DNA from: Octopus vulgaris
Taxonomy: Eukaryota
Direction: 5' to 3'
Length of the DNA stretch: 64,000 bases
NCBI GenBank assembly: GCA_951406725.2
Contig: OX597815.1
Location: 9,734,001 to 9,798,000, forward strand
The position numbers were made by a program, and so were the translations under genes. Numbering within the stretch: the first letter of the stretch is position 1; every line of letters starts with the position of its first letter. The notes under the pieces are model-generated. The model made no database searches and was not told the origin of the DNA. It saw only the letters and a list, made by a program, of their open reading frames with translations. Of the stretch, positions 2,110 through 61,612 are shown piece by piece.

Positions 2110-2397
2110 GTACTTCCACTTCACTAACTGGGAGGAAACGGCAAAAAACAGACCACTCTGGAAAACCACCATCCATGGCGACTTTCGAGTCAAAAAGGTC
2201 TGCAGAGCTGGAGGAGAAAAGATGACGACGGAAGGAGCGCCAACAACAACCATATGTGACTCTCCCTTACAGCACTAGATGTCCGCACTGCAACCGATCT
2301 TTTCAAGCAAGAATTGGTCTTATCGGTCACCTACGGACTCACCAGTAAATTTGCGCAAAGACCATCATCCTCGACCTTGAGGGATTGCCACGACACG
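2110..2397 (+). mobile_element. RTE-clade LINE 3' fragment with C-terminal C2H2 finger
   Basis: Frameshifted translation NWEETAKNRPLWKTTIH..FESKRSAELEEKR..CPHCNRSFQARIGLIGHLRTHQ*; flanked by duplicated acctatttcttt (about 2097-2108 and 2398-2409). Confidence 0.85.
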
Positions 2398-2400
2398 ACC

Positions 2401-2817
2401 TATTTCTTTACTACCCACAAGGGGCTAAACACAGAGAGGACAAACAAGGACAGACAAGCATATTACGTTGATTATATCGACCCCAGTGCGTAACTGGTAC
2501 TTATTTAATCAACCCTGAAAGAACGAAAGGCAAAGTCGACCTCGGCGGAATTTGAACTCAGAACGTAGCGACAGATGAAATACTTATTTCTTTACTACCA
2601 CAAGGGGCTAAACACAGAGAGGACAAACAAGGACCGACAAACAGATTAAGTCGATTAGATCGACCCCAGTGCGTAACTGGTACTTAATTTATCGACCCCG
2701 AAAGGGTGAAAGGCAAAGTCGACCTCGGCGGAATTTGAACTCAGAACATAACGGCAGACGAAATACTGCTAAGCATTTCACCCGGCGTGCTAACGTTTCT
2801 GCCAGCTCGCTGCCTTA
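2401..2817 (-). mobile_element. SINE family B, dimeric body
   Basis: tRNA-like head (A box tggcagaaacgtt, B box gagttcaaattcc) plus two ~183-bp body units; 17-bp TSD with 2 mismatches at 2083-2099 and 2818-2834. Confidence 0.85.
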
Positions 2818-2819
2818 TC

Positions 2820-3245
2820 CCATTGCATGATACCTTGAGCAAGTGTTGTCTACTATAGCTGACTATAGGCTGGCTGACTAATGAAATGAGAATGTACTTG
2901 AGAGATTGGAAACTGGAAGAAGCCTGTCATATACATATTTGTGGATGTGTGTTGTGTGGCACACATGCATGCATGTACGCATGTGGACATATGTGTGCAT
3001 GTGTCTGAACCCTTGTATTGCCATCATGTGGTGGTTGTAAACAAGCATCACTGTCATACAAGCGGTGTTGTTCATTTCCAGTCTTCCATGAAAAGCATGC
3101 CTTGCCATGGGAAAATATTACCTTGCTTATGAACAGGTGATGTGTGGTGAGTGGAAGAGCATCTGGCCGTAGAAAAATCTGCCCTAAATTCCATCTGCCC
3201 CATGTAAGCATGGAAAAGCAGATGTCAAATGATGATAATGATGGT
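2820..3245 (+). mobile_element. SINE family D (its head at ~2035-2099 is separated by nested insertions)
   Basis: CORE-like accttgagcaagtg, internal TG tract, RTE-like tail and (GAT)n end. Confidence 0.7.
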
Positions 3246-6682: not shown

Positions 6683-7345
6683 ATCATCATCATCGTTTAA
6701 CGTCCGCTTTCCATGCTAGCATGGGTTGGACGGTTCAACTGGGGTCTGGCAAGCCCGAAGGCTGCACCAGGCCAGTCAGATCTGGCAGTGTTTCTACAGC
6801 TGGATGCCCTTCCTAACGCCAACCACTCCGTGAGTGTAGTGGGTGATTTTATGTGCCACCAACACAGGTGCCAGACGAGGCTGGCAGACGGCCACGCTCG
6901 GATGGTGTTTTTTATGTGCCACCGACACAGGTGCCAGACGAGGCTGGCAGACGGTCACGCTCGGATGGTGTTTTTTATGTGCCACCGACACAGGTGCCAG
7001 ACGAGGCTGGCGAACGGCCACGATCGGATGGTGTTTGTTACGTGCCCACAGCACGGAGGCCAGTCGATGCGGTACTGGCTACGGCCACGTTCGGATGGTT
7101 TTCTTATGTGCCACCGGCACTGGTACCACAAGGATACAAATTCCATTGATGTTCATCTATTTTGATTTGGTTAGATTTGATTTGATTTGATTTTGATTTT
7201 CACTTGCCTCAACAGGTCTTCACAAGTGTCACAAGAAGGAAGGTATGCACAGGTGGACTGACTACGTCCCAGGTAGGGGCCACGGGTTATGGCTTCACTA
7301 GTCTTGCCGGGTCTTCTCACGCACAGCATACTTCCATAGGTCTCC
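6683..7345 (-). mobile_element. Family C RTE LINE, longer copy with ORF end and 63-bp VNTR
   Basis: Reverse strand includes DLWKYAVREKTRQD* followed by the 3'UTR with several 63-bp units and a (GAT)n tail. Confidence 0.85.
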
Positions 7346-13024: not shown

Positions 13025-13440
13025 ATTTCTTTACTACCCACAAGGGGCTAAACACAGAGGGGACAAACAAAGACAGACAGACGAATTAAGTCGATTATAT
13101 CAACTCCAGTGCGTAACTGGCACTTAATTTATCGACCCCGAAAGGATGAAAGGCAAAGTCAACCTCGGCGGAATTTGAACTCAGAACGTAGAGACAGACG
13201 AAATACCTATTTCTTTACTGCCCACATGGGGCTAAACCTAGAGGGGACAAACAAGGACAGACAAATGGATTAAATCGATTACCTCGACTCCAGTGCATAA
13301 CTGATACTTAATTTATTGACCCTGAAAGGATGAGAGGCAAAGTCGACCTTGGAGGAATTTGAACTCAGAACGTAACAGCAGACGAAATTTGGCTATGCAT
13401 TTCGCCCAGCGTGCTAACGATTCTGCCAGCTCACCGCCTT
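13025..13440 (-). mobile_element. SINE family B, dimeric body
   Basis: Two body units plus head; degenerate TSD gggtaa(g/a)gatgtat. Confidence 0.85.
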
Positions 13441-16926: not shown

Positions 16927-17545
16927 TAAAAATCGAAATTGATCAAAAATCAATGGAAATTGTAGCTGTGATACCAGTGCTGGTGGCACATAAGAGAACC
17001 GTCCGAACGTGGCCGTTGCCAGCGCTGCCCCGACTGGCCTCCGTGCCGGTGGCATGTAAAAAGCACCATCCGATTGTGGCCGTTTGCCAGCCTCGTCTGG
17101 CCCCCATGCCAGTGGCACGTAAAAAGCACCATCCAATCGTGGCCGTTTGCCAGCCTCGTCTGGCCCCCATGCCAGTGGCACGTAAAAAGCACCATCCAAT
17201 CGTGGCCGTTTGCCAGCCTCGTCTGGCCCCCATGCCTGTGGCACGTAAAAAGCACCATCCAATCGTGGCCGTTTGCCAGCCTCGTCTGGCCCCCATGCCA
17301 GTGGCACGTAAAAAGCACCATCCAATCGTGGCCGTTTGCCAGCCTCGTCTGGCACCTGTGCAGGTGGCACGTAAAAAGCACCCACTACACTCACGGAGTG
17401 GTTGGCGTTAGGAAGGGCATCCAGCTGTAGAAACACTGCCAGATCAGACTGGGACTGGCGCAGCCGACTGGCTCCCCAGACCCCAGTTGAACCGTCCAAC
17501 CCATGCTAGCATGGAAAACAGACGTTAAACGATGATGATGATGAT
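16927..17545 (+). mobile_element. Family C RTE 3'UTR with expanded 63-bp VNTR
   Basis: About 6 units with 63-bp period (17112, 17175, ...), then ggaagggcatccagctg and (gat)n. Confidence 0.9.
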
Positions 17546-23807: not shown

Positions 23808-23949
23808 TCCTCTATAAAAACACACATACACAAACATTATCATATACAGAAACACAAATTATCATGTATAAAAATGTACATTATTGCATAGAGAAACACA
23901 AACATTATATTGTACAGAAATTGTTTCCAGCATAGGGCTATTCAATACC

Positions 23950-24549
23950 TATTTCTTTACTGCCCACAAGGGGCTAAACACAGAGGGGACAAACAAAGAC
24001 AGACAAATGAATGAAGTCGATTACATCGACCCCAGTGTGAAACTGGTACTTATTTAATCGACCCCGAAAGGATGAAAGGCAGAGTCGACCTTGGCGGAAT
24101 TTGAACTCAGAACGTAGCGATAGACAAAATACTTATTTCTTTACTACCCACAAGGGGCTAAACACAGAGGGGACAAACAAGGACAGACAAACGGATCAAG
24201 TCGATTACGTCGACCCCAGTGTGTAACTGGTACTTATTTGATCGACCCCGATAGGATGAAAGGCAAAGCCGACCTCGGCAGAATTTGAACTCAGAATGTA
24301 AGACAGACGAAATACCTATTTCTTTACTACCCACAAGGGACTAAACACAGAGAGGACAAACAAGGACAGACAAACGGATCAAGTCGATTACATCGACCCC
24401 AGTGTGTAACTGGTACTTATTTAATCTACCCCGAAAGGATGAAAGGCAAAGTCGACCTTGGCGGAATTTGAACTCAGAACGTGGCGACAGACAAAATACT
24501 GCTAAGCATTTTGCCCGGTGTGCTAACGTTTATGCCAGTTGGCTGCCTT
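23950..24549 (-). mobile_element. SINE family B, trimeric body
   Basis: Units start at 23950, 24134 and 24317; TSD attcaatacc at 23940-23949 and 24553-24562. Confidence 0.9.
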
Positions 24550-24819
24550 ATAATTCAATACCATAGACCTCAGTACATGACTGGTATTTTTTCAACCTCA
24601 AAAGGATGATCACAGTGGGATTTGAACTCAGAATGTAAATAGTTAGAACAAATACCACCAGGCATTGCCATTATCATGCATGGAAATACACATTATCATG
24701 TACACCAACACACACACATAACATCATGTACAGAAATTCAAACACCTTAGTAAGAACACAGACATACACATATTATCATGTACAGGAACACACACACATC
24801 CATAAACAGAAACGCAACT

Positions 24820-33821: not shown

Positions 33822-34054
33822 TATTTCTTTACTACCCACAAGGGGCTAAATACAGAGGGGACAAATAAGGACAGACAAACGGATCAAGTCGATTACATCG
33901 ACGCCAGTGCGTAACTGGTACTTAATTTATCGACCCCAAAAGGGTGAAAGGCAAAGTCGACCTCGGCGGAATTTGAACTCAGAACGTAACGGCAGACGAA
34001 ATACGGCTACGCATTTCGCCCGGTGTGCTAACGTTTCTGCCAGCTCGTCACCTT
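33822..34054 (-). mobile_element. SINE family B monomer nested in a family E SINE
   Basis: Head plus a single body; 3' end abuts aatacc. Confidence 0.85.
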
Positions 34055-37524: not shown

Positions 37525-37732
37525 TCCACATTTTGCCACAAGGGCAGCAATTTTGGGGAAGGGGATGAGTTGATTACATCGATCCCCAGTGTTCAACCAG
37601 TACTTAATTTATTGATCCCAAAAGGATGAGAGTCAAAGTTGACCTCAATGAAACTTGAACTCAACATAAAGACAGATGAAATGATGCTAAGCATTTTGCC
37701 CAGTATACTAACAATTCTACCAGCTTGACACT
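37525..37732 (-). mobile_element. Older monomeric B-related SINE with a different 3' end
   Basis: Shares the family B head and central domain; similar copies at ~38305-38518 and ~58970-59186, next to (TAA)/(TAC) tracts. Confidence 0.7.
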
Positions 37733-37780
37733 TTACTACTACTACTACTACTACTAATGATGATGGTGATGAAGATGATG

Positions 37781-38303: not shown

Positions 38304-38558
38304 CTTTTCTCCTTCAGTCACAAAACCTGAAATTTTAGGATAGGGAACTAGTTGATTACACTGACCCTAGTGCTCAACTGGTACTTATTTCATTGATCCC
38401 GAAAAGATGAAAGGGAAAGCCGACCTCGGCGGAATTTGAACTCAGAATGTAAAGACAGATGAAACGCTACTACACATTTTATCCAGCATGCTAAAAAGAT
38501 TCTTCCAGCTCACCACCTTAATAATAATAATAATAATAATAATAACAATAACAATAAC

Positions 38559-41047: not shown

Positions 41048-41412
41048 TATTTCTTTACTACCCACAGGGGGCTAAATACAGACCCCGAAAGGTTAAAAGG
41101 CAAAGTCGACCTCGGCGGAATTTGAACTCAGAACATAGCGGCAGATAAAATACCTATTTTTTTACAACCCACAAGAGGCTAAACACAGAGAGGACAAACA
41201 AGGACAGACAAATGAATTAAGTCGATTATATCGACCCCAGTGTATAACTGGTACTTATTTAATCAACCCCGCAAGGTTGAAAGGCAAAGTCGACCTCGGC
41301 GGAATTTGAACTCAGAAGGTAACGTCAGACGAAATACCTATTTCTATTTCTTTACTAACCACAAGGGGCTAAACACAGAAGGGACAAACAAGGACAGACA
41401 AATGGATTAAGT
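41048..41412 (-). mobile_element. SINE family B, headless partial trimer
   Basis: Three body units, the first internally deleted and the last truncated. Confidence 0.8.
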
Positions 41413-49320: not shown

Positions 49321-49736
49321 TATTTCTTTATTACCCACAAGGGGCTAAACGCAGAGGGGACAAACAAGGACAGACATAGGTATTAAGTCGATTACATCGA
49401 CCCCAGTGCGTAACTGGTACTTAATTTATCGACCCCGTAAGGATGAAAGGCAAAGTCGACCTCGGCGGAATTTGAACTCACAACATAACGGCAGACAAAA
49501 TATCTATTTCTTTATTACCCACAAGGGGCTAAACACAGAGGGGACAAACAAGGACAGACATAGGTATTAAGTCGATTACATCGACCCCAGTGCGTAACTG
49601 GTACTTAATTTATTGACCCCGAAAGGATGAAAGGCAAAGTTGACCTCGGCGGAATTTGAACTCACAACATAACGGCAGACGAAATACCGCTAAGCATTTC
49701 GCCCGGCATGCTAACGTTTCTGCCAGCTCACTGCCT
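49321..49736 (-). mobile_element. SINE family B dimer nested in a family A SINE
   Basis: TSD tttgtccc(c/a)tacc at 49308-49320 and 49737-49749. Confidence 0.9.
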
Positions 49737-52537
49737 TTTGTCCCATACCACTACTTAACAACCGGTGTTGCTATGTTTACATCCATATAACTTAATGGTT
49801 CAACACAAGAGACCAATAGACTAAATACCAGGCTTGAAAATAGATGAGAACGAGTGTCAATCTGTTTCGCCAAAATTCCTCAAAGTGGTGCCCCAGCATG
49901 GCCACAGTCTAATGACTGACACAAGTGAAAGATAAAATATAGCTTCTAAAATGTTTAATAGATTCAGCATGCATTTATGAAGATGTGAGCTGAAGGTGCT
50001 AGGGTACCATCTGTATCGCTGTGGATGTGTGGTGGTTAAGAAGTTCTCTTTGTAGCTTCAGGTTCATCCACTGCAAAGCACCTTGGTTAAGTGTCTGTCA
50101 TATACCATAGCTTTCAGTCAACCCAGACAGTGTAAGCGTAATTTGGTTGCTAGAAATAGTGTGGAGGATCATCAAAGCAACTCTTCCTGTCTGAAGATAA
50201 GTTACTTTTTTCCTCCCATCATTCAGAGAAATTCTAAAATTTTGAAACATAGGTCGTCCTTTTTTGTAATATATTATTACGATGCGTCCGGAGGCCAGTC
50301 GATGCAGCACGGACGCATCGACTGGCCTCCATGCTGGTAGCACGTAACAAACACCATCCGATCGTGGCCGTGCCAGCCTTGCCTGGCCTCCGTGCCGGTG
50401 GCACATAAAAAACACCATCCGAGCATGGCCGTTCGCCAGCCTTGTCTGGCACCTGTGTCGGTGGCACATAAAAAGCACCCACTACACTCACGGAGTGGTT
50501 GGCGTTAGGAAGGGCATCCAGCTGTAGAAACACCGCCAGATCTGACTGGCCTGGTGCAGCCTTCGGGCTTCCCAGACCCCAGTTGAACCGTCCAACCCAT
50601 GCTAGCATGGAAAGCAGACGTTAAACGATGATGATGATGATGATTATAAAAAGGTTCCAATCTCAATAAAGCCATTTTGTTGTGTCTCCTGGGCAATGTA
50701 CCTTAACAGTACTTGCTACGAAAATGATAAAATAAGATAAATTTTGAATGCCTTAAGAAGCGAGCTCTGATGTTCTGACGGATCTTTTTGAGAAAAATGT
50801 TTTCTTAACAAATGTTTCAGTTGTTTTTTGCCAGTAGTGGTTATTAATTGTTTCTTCAGATTCTGTTTTTTTTAAAGATTGATTAAATAAGAATATAATC
50901 TTGTAACAAATAATCTCAGCTGAGTTTGAGAAAACTTGTAACATGGACATAGCCTTAGGTATTTTCATCTGTATTTCAGTAAAATCCGCGTATTGAAAAT
51001 CTGCCTTGAAAATTTAATCTGATAAATTAATATTTGGAAATTTAAGAATTAGAAAATAGCCATTAATACAATTTAGAGGACAACACCAAATATGACCATA
51101 AATATAGTTTAGTGGACATAACTGTTGTACTATTATGTCCATTAATGCAGATTAGAAGACATAATGGTTATAACTACTAACACTTTATTTTAAAATATTA
51201 TTAGTCTAAATCATAACAACAACAGCAATTATGGTCATTAATATTAGAGGACATTATTATAATCACTAACACACTTAGCTGATATGAATATTAATTTATG
51301 ACATGTAAATTCAATTAATTCATGACATGTAAATTCAATATGATTTACACGACATAACTATTATGCCTACTAATATAGTTTAAATGATTAAACTTATTAT
51401 AGGAGAATATTGTAGTTTGCTTGAAGCATTATGTATTGTTTGTAAAGAATGAAAAGTTTTGAATAGTACAACAATGTACTATAATACAAACAATGGACTA
51501 TATACCTGTTGTAATTTAGTCATCCATAGTCTAATATGATATTTAGGAATAATATTCCTTCTTCAGATATAGTCGCTGCTATAATCGGTTAGCAGCGACT
51601 CCATCATCATCATCATCTTCGTCGTTTAACGACCGTTTTCCATGCTAGCATGGGTTGGATGGTTCGACCGGGGTCTGGGAAGCCAGGAGGCTGCACCAGG
51701 TTCCAGTCTGATCTGGCAGTGTTTCTACAGCTGGATGCCCTTCCTAACGCCAACCACTCTGTGAGTGTAGTGGGTGCTTTTTACGTGCCACCAGCACAGG
51801 TGCCAGGGGAGGCTGGCAATGGCCACGATCGGTTGGTGCTTTTTACGTGCCACTGGCACAGGGATCACAACTGCAATTTCCATTGTCTAAGAATAACTGA
51901 AGAAGGAATTGTATTTTGAAATATCATCGGACTATGGATAACTAACTTATTATGCTTCAATAAATTAAATTTTGTCATCTATTATCATCATTTTGTTTTT
52001 AATGTTTTGCTTTGTATTAGTTCAACCTCTATATTTATAACTGCTGTTCTTTTTTTTTGTTTTTAAGTAAAATATCAAAGTGCTCAACACACATTCACAG
52101 AGTCTTGTGGAGCACAGTACACATACAGACATACACACACATGTAGGATTGTATAGTTAAGAAGTTCACTTCCAGGTCATTTGACTTTAGGCTCAGTCAT
52201 ACTTTGCAGCAAGTATCATACTTTGGCCATCAGCCAAACAAAGCCTTGAGAATGGATTTGGTAGATGTAAACCAACAGAATCCTGTTGTATGCATCTGTG
52301 TATGCTTATGTCCCTTGTGTTGGAAATGGTAGTTAAGACACCTGTGCCGGTGACACGTAAAAAGTATTGTCCAAACGTGGCAGATGCCAGATAAAAATCA
52401 AAACTTAATGTGAAAAACAAGATGATAGGTATTAATCTCCAGCTGTCCCAGTTATAAGTTAAAGCTACAATATTCTTAACTGGACTCTAAATGGAACGAT
52501 CAAAATAGACAGGAAAATGGAGTAATCAAAATAGACA

Positions 52538-56419: not shown

Positions 56420-56834
56420 ATCACACTAGGTACTCAAAATATCTGCCCACCTGTTTATCTATAATTTGCACAACAGGAACCTATACTAAGACGTTTAGTA
56501 TACACTTAGCTGAAGCCACATTATTGAAAGGAAGAATCACTAAAGTTTGATCAATTCATTAATTGTAGGTTAGTCTTTGGCAATGCAAAGTACAGGCTTT
56601 TGGTAACGTCCAATTAACATAACCAACATCTTACCTCTATAATTATTGCTGCAGCAATCCAGTTAAGTCTCCATAGTGTTGGCTGTATTAGTTCTGCTTG
56701 AGTGTCCAATATGAATTGAAGGTTAGAAACACCAATTGCATTGGATGCTGTGCCTCCCGTAACCCTAACGATAGATACTGGTGTAGTCAATAATGATGCT
56801 GCTGATCATGATGCTGGTATTTTTTTACTCTAGA

Positions 56835-57066
56835 AAGGCGGCGAGCTGGCAGAAATGTTAGCACGCCGGGCGAAATGCTTAGCAGTATTTTGTCTGCGTT
56901 ACGTTGTGAGTTCAAATTCCGCCGAGGTCGACTTTGCCTTTCATCCTTTCGGGGTCGATAAATTAAGTACCAGTTATGCACTGGGGTCGATGTAATCGAC
57001 TAAATACCTATGTCTGTCCTTGTTTGTCCCCTCTATATTTAGCCCCTTGTGGGTAATAAAGAAATA
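56835..57066 (+). mobile_element. SINE family B monomer
   Basis: Perfect 16-bp TSD ggtatttttttactct at 56816-56831 and 57067-57082. Confidence 0.9.
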
Positions 57067-58889: not shown

Positions 58890-59557
58890 GCCTGGAGGGA
58901 GGAAGTCAGCAGCCTCCCATAATAGCACTTTCATACCACTTTCGTGTCTTCCATATCAATGCTGAGCATGGTTTCAAATTTTGGCACAAGGCCAGCAATT
59001 TCGGTGGGAGGGGGATAAGTCGGTTACACTGAACCCAGTGTTCAACTGGTACTTATTTTATCTATCCCAAAAAGATGAAAGGCAACACTGACCTCACCGG
59101 AATTTGAACTCAGAACGTAAAGGTGGGCAAAATGCCGATAAACATTTTGTCCAGCATGCTAACAATTTTTGCAGCTCACTGTCTTAGTATGTATGTGTGT
59201 GTGTATGTGCATACTGAATCAGACAAGGTGTGGCTAAACTAGATAGCAGAGCACTGTTTATAAAGGTTTCTGAGCTTTGATCATACTTTTCATGCTGTGT
59301 GCATATTTTATGCAGTAATTAGTTGCACCTTATTAACTACTTTACTTCTGTGAATACTGGGAGTATTCACTGCCCACCCCCACTGCCTCCTTAGCAATTC
59401 TCATGATATTTCTCTCTCTCTCTTTATCAAGCTTTAGAACCTGTTCTATATTTTTCATGCTCACTGCATACACATACCCACACACTGCATTTACTCATGT
59501 ACAATTTGACAAATTTAATGCAAAGCAGGAATAAAATCTGTGGATAGCATGATACTT

Positions 59558-60180: not shown

Positions 60181-60694
60181 TATTTCTTTACTACCCACAA
60201 GGGGCTAAACACAGAGAGGACAAACAAGGACAGACAAACGGATTAAGTCGATTACATCGACCCCAGGGCGTAACAGGTACTTAATTTATCGACCCCGAAA
60301 GGATGAAAGGCAAAGTCAACCTCGGCGGAATTTGAACTCAGAACGTAACGGCAGACAAAATACCTATTTCTTTACTACCCACAAGGGGCTAAACATAGAG
60401 AGGACAAACAAGGACAGACAAATGGATTAAGTCGATTACATCGACCCCAGGGCATAACAGGTACTTAATTTATCGACCCCGAAAGGATGAAAGGCAAAGT
60501 CAACCTCGGCGGAATTTGAACTCAGAACGTAGCGGCAGACGAAATAAGTTGGGGTGAAAGAGTACAACAAGGGTCGCCACCACCCCCTGCCGGAGCCACG
60601 TGAAGTTTTAGGTGTTTTTGCTCAATAACGCCCAGTCTGGGAATCGAAACCGCGATCCTCCGACCACGAGTCCGCTGCCCTAACCACTGGGCCA
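60181..60694 (-). mobile_element. Chimeric SINE: foreign tRNA-like head fused to two family B bodies
   Basis: Head tggcccagtggttagg..ggtttcgattccc at 60546-60694; a single TSD taggatgatac at 60169-60179 and 60695-60705 encloses both parts. Confidence 0.8.
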
Positions 60695-61099: not shown

Positions 61100-61612
61100 T
61101 CATCATCATCATCATCATCGTTTAACGTCCGTTTTCCGTCCTAGCATGAGTTGGACGATTCAACCAGGGTCTGGGAAGCCAGGAGGCTGCACCGGGCTCC
61201 AGTCTGATCTGGCAGTGTTTCTACAGCTGGATGCACTTCCTAACGCCAACCACTCCGTGAGTGTAGTGGGTGCTTTTTACGTGCCAGGGGAGTCTGGCAT
61301 CAGCCACGTTCGGATGGTGCTTTTTACATGCCACGCGCACAGAAGCCAGTCAAGGCGGCATGGCATCAGCCACGTTCGGATGGTGCTTTTTACATGCCAC
61401 ATGCACAGAAGCCAGTCAAGGCGGCGCTGGCATCGGCCACGTTCGGATGGTGCTTTTTACGTGCCACGCGCTAGCATCGGCCACGTTTGGATGGTGCTTT
61501 TTACGTGCCACGCGCACAGAAGCCAGTCAAGGCGGCGCTGGCATCGGCCACGTTCAGATGGTGCTTTTTACGTGCCACCAGCACAGGTATCACAACTACT
61601 ATTTCCACTGAT
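61100..61612 (-). mobile_element. Family C RTE 3'UTR with variant VNTR
   Basis: (cat)n start and several gccacgttcggatggtgctttttac units. Confidence 0.85.

Follow-up and report, generated by a model that had tools for sequence, protein, structure and literature searches.

Family B, a SINE of Octopus vulgaris, is probably mobilised by a LINE and joined to its own head, its multimers likely having grown mainly by repeated insertion into resident copies. The family was analysed in the window, i.e., the whole stretch of 64,000 nucleotides under study (contig OX597815.1, positions 9,734,001 to 9,798,000), and at further loci of the 2.8-Gb genome. It was classed as a SINE because its copies are short, non-coding, high-copy, and interspersed, with target-site duplications (TSDs). 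The focal element, at 23950-24549 on the minus strand, consisted of a 49-nt head followed by three units of 184, 183, and 184 nt, and it was also detected as a tandem array with a period of 184 nt and 3.0 copies. Its features are given below in element order; 145 sites, namely, the non-CpG and non-diagnostic consensus positions, were scored per unit.

24553..24562, minus strand: 5' copy of the TSD, 10 bp, GGTATTGAAT (element sense), identical to 23940-23949
24550..24552, minus strand: three extra bases separating the TSD from the head, read from the sequence
24501..24549, minus strand: tRNA-like head, consensus 1-49, A-box side (box called by eye)
24317..24500, minus strand: unit 1, consensus 50-233 (remainder of the head, core, and family-B tail), 3 of 145 sites off consensus
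24134..24316, minus strand: unit 2, junction AAAGAAATA/GGTATTTCG, 4 of 145 sites off consensus
23950..24133, minus strand: unit 3, junction AAAGAAATA/AGTATTTTG, abutting the genomic target, 5 of 145 sites off consensus
23940..23949, minus strand: 3' copy of the TSD, matching the 5' copy

The trimer was bounded by a perfect 10-bp duplication (23940-23949 and 24553-24562, 10 of 10 bases), and its junctions fell at head position 50, both as the initial annotation had described. The units were 7-9% apart from one another. The gradient of 3, 4, and 5 of 145 sites is in keeping with serial growth, but it is too small to serve as proof.

The majority consensus of family B, obtained from 347 matches, was 233 nt long. 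An exact 28-nt tail variant occurred 51,481 times genome-wide, and a second variant occurred 17,468 times. In 880 kb of sampled DNA, 169 distinct chains with a B tail were identified, of which 67 were single and 102 multiple, with a maximum of 11 units; this sample is biased, most loci having been taken from one chromosome end on the basis of their tail pattern. Of the 33 chains in the unselected set, i.e., the window and 400 kb, 15 were multimeric. The junctions in the 169 chains were not scattered along the element, as 148 of 159 began at consensus 50-52 and 8 at position 17. Older sister families were also present, which had the head and core in common with family B and differed in their tails.

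A tail hairpin of the form NNN-CTTGT-NNN was found 236 times in SINE tails, with three stem types, and 10 times elsewhere. The head hairpin proposed earlier, with GTATTTCGTC on its 3' strand, was recovered in three of four cases when DNA was folded (z -1.3 to -2.4) and also when one copy was folded as RNA; the folding of the whole monomer was not significant (z -1.25). The head also carries motifs resembling the Pol III A and B boxes, called by eye. ARAGORN detected no tRNA genes within the window. An Rfam scan of 23900-24700 gave no real match and no snRNA, so that a U1/U2-derived head of the SINEU type was not found. The same scan, extended to an E value of 10, gave no ribozyme family, whereas a retrozyme would carry a self-cleaving ribozyme in each unit. 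Accordingly, a ribozyme or circular-RNA origin was rejected; the full head on the first unit also opposes a 183-nt circle. At position 50, approximately one third of the B heads had C or A, so that the GGTAT site was spoiled; the G45/C50 variant preserved the hairpin pairing. These position-50 variants possibly represent an escape from re-insertion.

In addition to the focal trimer, the window contained the following copies of family B and related elements.

2401..2816, minus strand: family-B dimer, TSD copies at 2083-2100 and 2818-2835
2110..2398, plus strand: presumably RTE-like LINE 3' fragment within the 3' end of the 2401 dimer, with its own 12-bp duplication
13025..13440, minus strand: family-B dimer, TSD without GGTAT
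33822..34054, minus strand: family-B monomer followed by GGTATT, no TSD called
38344..38518, minus strand: older sister-family SINE with the same head and core and another tail, in an ATT tract
near 37568-37734 and 59013-59186: copies similar to the 38344 sister SINE
41048..41412, minus strand: family-B trimer, 5'-truncated, last unit with a deletion
49321..49737, minus strand: family-B dimer of the young subfamily, units 97% alike
56835..57066, plus strand: family-B monomer with a 16-bp TSD beginning GGTATTT
60181..60546, minus strand: two headless family-B units, 97% alike
60547..60694, minus strand: a different tRNA-like SINE, joined at consensus 52, with one TSD spanning the whole chimera

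The other TSD pairs claimed for the window were real, with 16 of 16 bases matching at 56816/57067, 12 of 13 at both 49308/49737 and 60169/60695, and 16 of 18 at 2083/2818. The last pairing works only after stepping over the fragment at 2110-2398 (+), which entered exactly at the junction of the SINE tail and the TSD, and which we assumed to be RTE-like from its C2H2 motif. GGTA(T) had been reported at the 3' end of six of eight young copies. The motif was found there in five of them (2083 past the RTE-like piece, 23940, 33818, 49308, and 56816), and the 33818 copy had the motif with no TSD called, as described. The sixth copy, 60169, had AGTAT at its 3' junction and GGTAT in the 5' TSD copy only. 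The young copies 13025 and 41048 were without GGTA at the 3' junction. The statement that every multimer in the window has its junction at the head site, i.e., consensus 50-52, held throughout. The second tRNA-like SINE family, located at 60547-60694 in the window, was also present at another sampled locus (L437, near 6000 in element sense). A separate repeat family with internal tandem units of 61-66 bp was located at 6847-7128, 17027-17382, 50322-50479, and 61295-61578 of the window.

First and last units were compared in the 91 arrays that had at least two full units; the first was the less diverged in 65 arrays and the more diverged in 21 (2.5% vs 3.7%, p 4e-6). In mixed arrays, the young subfamily (1.9% vs 3.1%) was located 5' in 15 of 18. 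Thus, the comparison of unit divergence suggested earlier revealed mixed ages within multimers, as serial insertion predicts. Single-event template jumping, also raised by the initial annotation, holds that the head hairpin arrests the reverse transcriptase, which then switches to the 3' end of another RNA. It predicts units of equal age and is not supported as the source of the multimers, given the 5'-young polarity, the mixing of subfamilies, and the old sister bodies at the array ends. The junction does fall in the hairpin, and a single TSD usually surrounds the whole array. Moreover, the window locus 60181-60694, in which a foreign SINE was joined at position 52 within one TSD, likely reflects a template switch. 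However, foreign-SINE junctions were rare, this being one case among the 23 'other' of 339 position-50 contexts. Template jumping is already disfavoured, and it is very unlikely as the general route.

The array ends were informative, since 41 of the 169 chains terminated in the body of an older sister family. The terminal sister body was 6.2% diverged, compared with 3.7% for the adjoining B unit (32 vs 7 of 41 pairs), and was equal in this respect to stand-alone sisters (5.7%, n 18), although a heterogeneous sister consensus could inflate the apparent age of the sister. No age correlation was observed between the terminal body and its B neighbour in the 41 chimeras. The terminal bodies were 11.7% apart mutually, with 676 of 820 pairs having no common non-consensus letter; therefore, they are not copies of a few masters. 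This result weighs against the explanation that the arrays descend from a small number of multimeric or chimeric masters, each transcribed from end to end and retroposed as one piece. Such masters would likewise yield an apparent polarity, and no T4 terminator was found in the family-B consensus or in the unit junction. However, the terminal bodies were as distant from one another as stand-alone ones, with few common variants, many unit combinations and three sister tails occurred, and no TSD enclosed the complete array in any of ten cases in which the last unit was truncated. Multimeric masters are accordingly highly improbable, and the single ancestral master copy considered in the initial annotation found no support.

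Perfect TSDs were observed around 34 of 64 B-ended elements compared with 2 of 14 chimeras (p 0.016). The TSD mismatch rate alone did not separate chimeras from B monomers (15/158 vs 30/477, p 0.21), and the TSDs of B-only multimers were not older than those of monomers (13/263 vs 30/477).

A leftover resident head was flagged in 9 of 140 arrays, approximately seven of which were clear by eye, and the residents were more diverged (83.7% vs 89.5%). These arrays are classical insertions at position 50 or 17. The junctions of the other arrays, approximately 131 of 140, were seamless, and a seamless junction would result either from pairing between the resident head and the cDNA end or from the later collapse of a short direct repeat. 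In the two-unit chimeras (n=31), the B unit had the letters of the resident within positions 53-110 more often than permuted pairs did (25 vs 14.9, p 0.002). This excess of resident letters early in the added unit (first 60 nt) fits homology-resolved junctions or later conversion. The heads of chimeras were mostly B-like at position 21 (26 of 36), a position weakly diagnostic for the main sister; thus, the resident head is usually not visibly kept. As for the footprint of a truncated insertion, only one of ten internal gaps in head-50 units showed the expected break with a kept TSD.

Seamless arrays, with few truncated units that keep a TSD, are also expected from homing-like gene conversion, in which the LINE endonuclease cuts at position 50 and the break is repaired with a unit of a genomic array as DNA donor, through homology on both sides and without reverse transcription of that unit. 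The same applies to the base at position 50, which was G in 147 of 147 aligned junction units compared with 175 of 311 heads. However, letters 61-66 remained sister-type as in stand-alone sisters (column 65 G/A 17/51 vs 11/32), which argues against a long donor tract 3' of the junction in the main sister, and classical TSD-bearing insertions exist at the identical base. The older sister C3 (n 6) did show a shift after the junction (p 0.03). Taken as the main process, gene conversion is unlikely, and repeated insertion into resident copies is preferred.

A different pattern was observed in the long arrays. Arrays of 5-11 units had an internal divergence of 0-1%. At L170, L204-L217, L122-L127, and L169, the arrays were near-identical inside and their unit number ranged from 7 to 14 or more; these are either young SINE-derived satellites or assembly effects. 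Moreover, 18 of 54 first adjacent pairs were closer than the 5% quantile of between-array pairs, while 35 of 54 were without a common rare variant. Because the long arrays were near-identical and many adjacent pairs were close, local duplication was considered a second process. The features of SINE-derived satellites were seen in long arrays (L127, L164, L169, and L170) and not in most dimers and trimers. It could be argued that all arrays are ordinary SINE-derived satellites, generated with no new retroposition, a short stretch of similarity between tail and head having allowed unequal crossing-over or slippage. The close pairs, the uniform long arrays, and the window dimers at 49321 and 60181, with units 97% alike, agree with this explanation. 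However, it cannot place a B tail in a sister element, and it is opposed by the pairs without a common rare variant, by the mixing of subfamilies within arrays, and by the use of the same base by the LINE. Its probability as a full account is very slight. Crossing-over or slippage is refuted as the main route by the chimeras of B and sister units, and it holds as a secondary process for long arrays only. At the focal locus, the reads of four runs, swamped by repeat reads, gave no empty site and no change in unit number. Two inverted B arrays approximately 240 bp apart (L023/L024) had matching unit variants and similar flanks.

In the case of the target site, the 51,481 exact ends of the tail variant were followed by GGTATTT in 22,349 and by NNTAT in 38,052 instances. 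About half of the family-B tail ends join position 50 of another SINE head. A TSD was called at 50 of 103 terminal ends, with a control rate of 0.4%. As the upstream TSD copy represents the pre-insertion site, the motif was present in the target, but in degenerate form. Away from SINE heads, the upstream TSD copies gave Y|DRTAT; of the 50 copies, 9 read GGTAT, 13 GGTA, 7 TATAT, and 26 NNTAT. The proposal that the SINE inserts at GGTAT was thus borne out as an enrichment, 9 of 50 copies starting with this motif against a background of 0.08% per position, and not as a strict rule. GGTAT is the commonest target class, and other non-SINE classes, TATAT and AGAA, were common. The sister tails ended at AATATT or ATTATT in the identical register.

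Position-50 SINE sites accounted for only 36 of 1,116 GGYAT sites in 400 kb of unselected DNA; therefore, the pentamer alone is far less favoured than the head. At non-head GG sites (n=55), the match to GGTATTTC fell with distance (0.84, 0.82, 0.60, 0.56, 0.31, and 0.18). The tail variants had their own target spectra. The TAG variant (173 ends) was joined to head-50 in 108 and to other GG sites in 32 instances (together 140), and the CAA variant (41 ends) to TA in 12, AG in 11, head-17 in 5, head-50 in 5, and GG in 4. Head position 17 formed a second junction class, with 3,702 exact matches genome-wide (L276-L305), mostly of the CAA variant. Antisense insertions of family B into the SINE core, at GGTACTT and with TSDs, were also observed (L009, L106, and L160).

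The invariant G at junction position 50 indicates either that only GG heads are hit or that the RNA supplies the G. At unique sites, 4 of 23 GG junctions had a different base in the upstream TSD copy, which gives a weak hint that the RNA supplies it. Of the earlier idea that the RNA end primes by microhomology and also jumps back onto its own template, the part concerning short RNA-DNA priming agrees with this G, whereas jumping as the source of multimers is not supported.

The partner LINE was reached in two steps. The hairpin search led to an ORF1-bearing element with a B-like tail, and the ORF1 search led to an internally deleted position-50 LINE. Two exclusion patterns for the LINE tail had given only SINE variants, and a third gave 27 near-B matches. 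The matching LINE 3' end sought since the initial annotation was thereby obtained, approximately 32 of the last 35 bases of the LINE matching family B; its tail loop was one base off the SINE loop CTTGT, being CCTGT or CCGGT in most copies. All 30 LINE copies, which were chosen by the last 519 nt of the LINE itself, ended at a GGTATT-like register, 26 at clean head-50 sites, 3 at deleted heads, and 1 before an N gap. One copy, 5.15 kb long, had a resident head stub on one side and a sister body on the other. The five 5' ends seen whole began after the target stub GGTATTTC... (13 bp in four), and a sixth (L446) was seen only in part.

The LINE encoded a reverse transcriptase domain (RVT_1, E 2e-20), the best PDB match of which was human L1 ORF2p, and a CCHC zinc knuckle in ORF1. 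Homologues were found in cephalopods. Exo_endo_phos was detected in one of six fragments with E 4e-5, just under the curated cut-off, and the endonuclease had no PDB match. The element thus combines an APE endonuclease and a reverse transcriptase in ORF2, a CCHC knuckle in ORF1, and target-specific insertion with a short TSD. We assumed that it belongs to the Tx1 clade, a provisional label and not the result of a tree. The copies were broken and 84-91% alike in the 3' part, with no intact ORF2 among those found. Family B is likely mobilised by this L1/Tx1-like LINE, as judged from the common tail and insertion base, and the earlier suggestion of a sequence-specific partner that makes the SINE self-target gains support from a LINE with a nearly identical tail at head position 50. 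In 4 of 6 5'-complete copies at position 50, and in one more at position 17, B units were located between the head and the LINE. This does not prove the order of events because the LINE may have entered an existing junction.

Other LINE ends, presumably Dong/R4-like, CR1-like, and RTE-like, were rejected as the partner, as their tails were not common to the SINE; the Dong-like ends were, moreover, in the opposite orientation and in TAA tracts. Several Dong/R4-like families ended in TAA tracts (L006, L034, L053, and L063), and at L006 such a LINE lay tail to tail with a sister SINE in one TAA tract. A large family of ORF1-bearing elements with a CCHC knuckle and a B-like tail was present at L221-L250 and L336-L365. 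Most of these ended at CAGGACGTTGG sites, stacked head to tail, and two ended at SINE head position 16; several ORF1 copies had no stop in the matched part. At L442, near 2800-3110 in element sense, four tandem tail-only units of 78 nt (consensus 156-233) were located just upstream of a LINE copy.

The repeated insertion considered most probable here could proceed as follows. The LINE endonuclease would nick the bottom strand opposite Y|GGTATTT, and the tail hairpin with the loop CTTGT would recruit the reverse transcriptase. Base pairing to the nicked strand probably involves two to five RNA bases past AAAGAAAUA. Where the target is a SINE head, the seamless junction would then form by one of the two routes given above, i.e., pairing of the cDNA end with the resident head or later collapse of the resulting short direct repeat. 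The predicted product is a head, a new unit, and the old body, with the old TSD outside and the target regenerated. As the added unit would enter behind the head, the newest units would be 5'. Long, near-identical arrays would have formed later by local duplication. The SINE, acting in trans, would be less strict than the LINE and would also take GG.., TATA.., and AGAA.. sites.

It is conceivable, although doubtful, that the choice of target is inherited through the RNA, in that the read-through flank of the source copy primes the insertion and each subfamily perpetuates its own landing site. The flanks would be GGUAUUU for head position 50, AGAAWCG for head position 17, and UAUAUA for TA tracts, and such a self-homing loop would be independent of the protein. 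Several partner LINEs with different endonucleases would explain the subfamily-specific targets as well.

Among known systems, the closest likeness was found in crocodilians, where Tx1-Mar LINEs and SINEU share an insertion site in a Mariner DNA transposon (Kojima 2015, PMC4494074). Both systems comprise a target-preferring Tx1 or Tx1-like LINE and a SINE with a common site in another repeat, a SINE less strict than its LINE, tandem copies by sequential insertion, and different partner families at different sites (PMC4494074). However, the tandem copies of Tx1-Mar and SINEU sandwich a TSD, whereas the self-insertion of family B is mostly seamless; and the family-B target is its own tRNA-like head, whereas the SINEU head is snRNA-derived and its target is Mariner (PMC4494074). 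By analogy, family B appears to work like SINEU without being a member. Tx1L in Tx1D, Keno, Kibi, and Koshi likewise combine an APE-type LINE, a fixed multicopy site, and a short TSD, but their targets, as described there, are a DNA transposon, U2 genes, or microsatellites and not a passenger SINE (PMC4494074).

The arrays also resemble the SINE-derived satellites of squamates, in which tandem partial units of approximately 150-180 bp occur with one longer terminal unit and longer arrays are more uniform (PMC10702118). Those satellites, whose unit boundaries vary, were ascribed to duplication and unequal recombination. In the accessible part of that account they have no fixed target or partner enzyme, whereas the family-B boundary is the LINE target base and its unit ages differ (PMC10702118). 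The multimer frequency of family B is similar to that of the mammalian B2 and Dip, 40-49% of whose copies are in head-to-tail multimers of an origin left open by the authors in the text available. Unlike family B, whose downstream units are without bases 1-49, the units of B2, Dip, and Ves are full-length and join at the tail (PMC8466645).

In the case of RNA pairing, insertion of R2Ol rises if the RNA 3' end carries target sequence (PMC6530143), and priming by target-matching RNA was proposed for SART1 and R1 (PMC7265360). In R2 and R1/SART1, the upstream target sequence serves to improve full-length insertion (PMC6530143, PMC7265360). These elements are autonomous, reside in rDNA or telomeres, and were tested in vivo, whereas we infer the RNA pairing of family B (PMC6530143, PMC7265360). 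OK, OR1, and OR2 are tRNA-derived octopus SINEs (Ohshima and Okada 1994), and OR1 and OR2 are cited as CORE-SINEs (PMC4758252, PMC4824008); family B may be one of the three. L1-Tx1 and unclassified SINE families are listed, in the accessible part without target analysis, in PMC13282606, the supplements of which may include these consensus sequences. In the literature covered, which excluded Repbase and most subscription journals, we found no SINE described as being targeted to its own head.

As the passenger of one LINE and at once its landing pad, the SINE would place a large share of its insertions in existing copies, as harmless additions. Insertion of the SINE would keep the A-box/B-box promoter intact, whereas insertion of the LINE at the same base would split it. 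The arrays offer a dated account of the mechanism by which a dispersed SINE could give rise to 183-bp satellites; the squamate and jerboa papers, in the available text, leave this point open (PMC10702118, PMC8466645). Given the 5'-young order, each array would be a record of subfamily succession, and as chimeric arrays mix ages, they bear on repeat annotation and dating. Moreover, with tens of thousands of junctions available, the shares of endonuclease and RNA-DNA pairing in non-LTR targeting can be tested directly.
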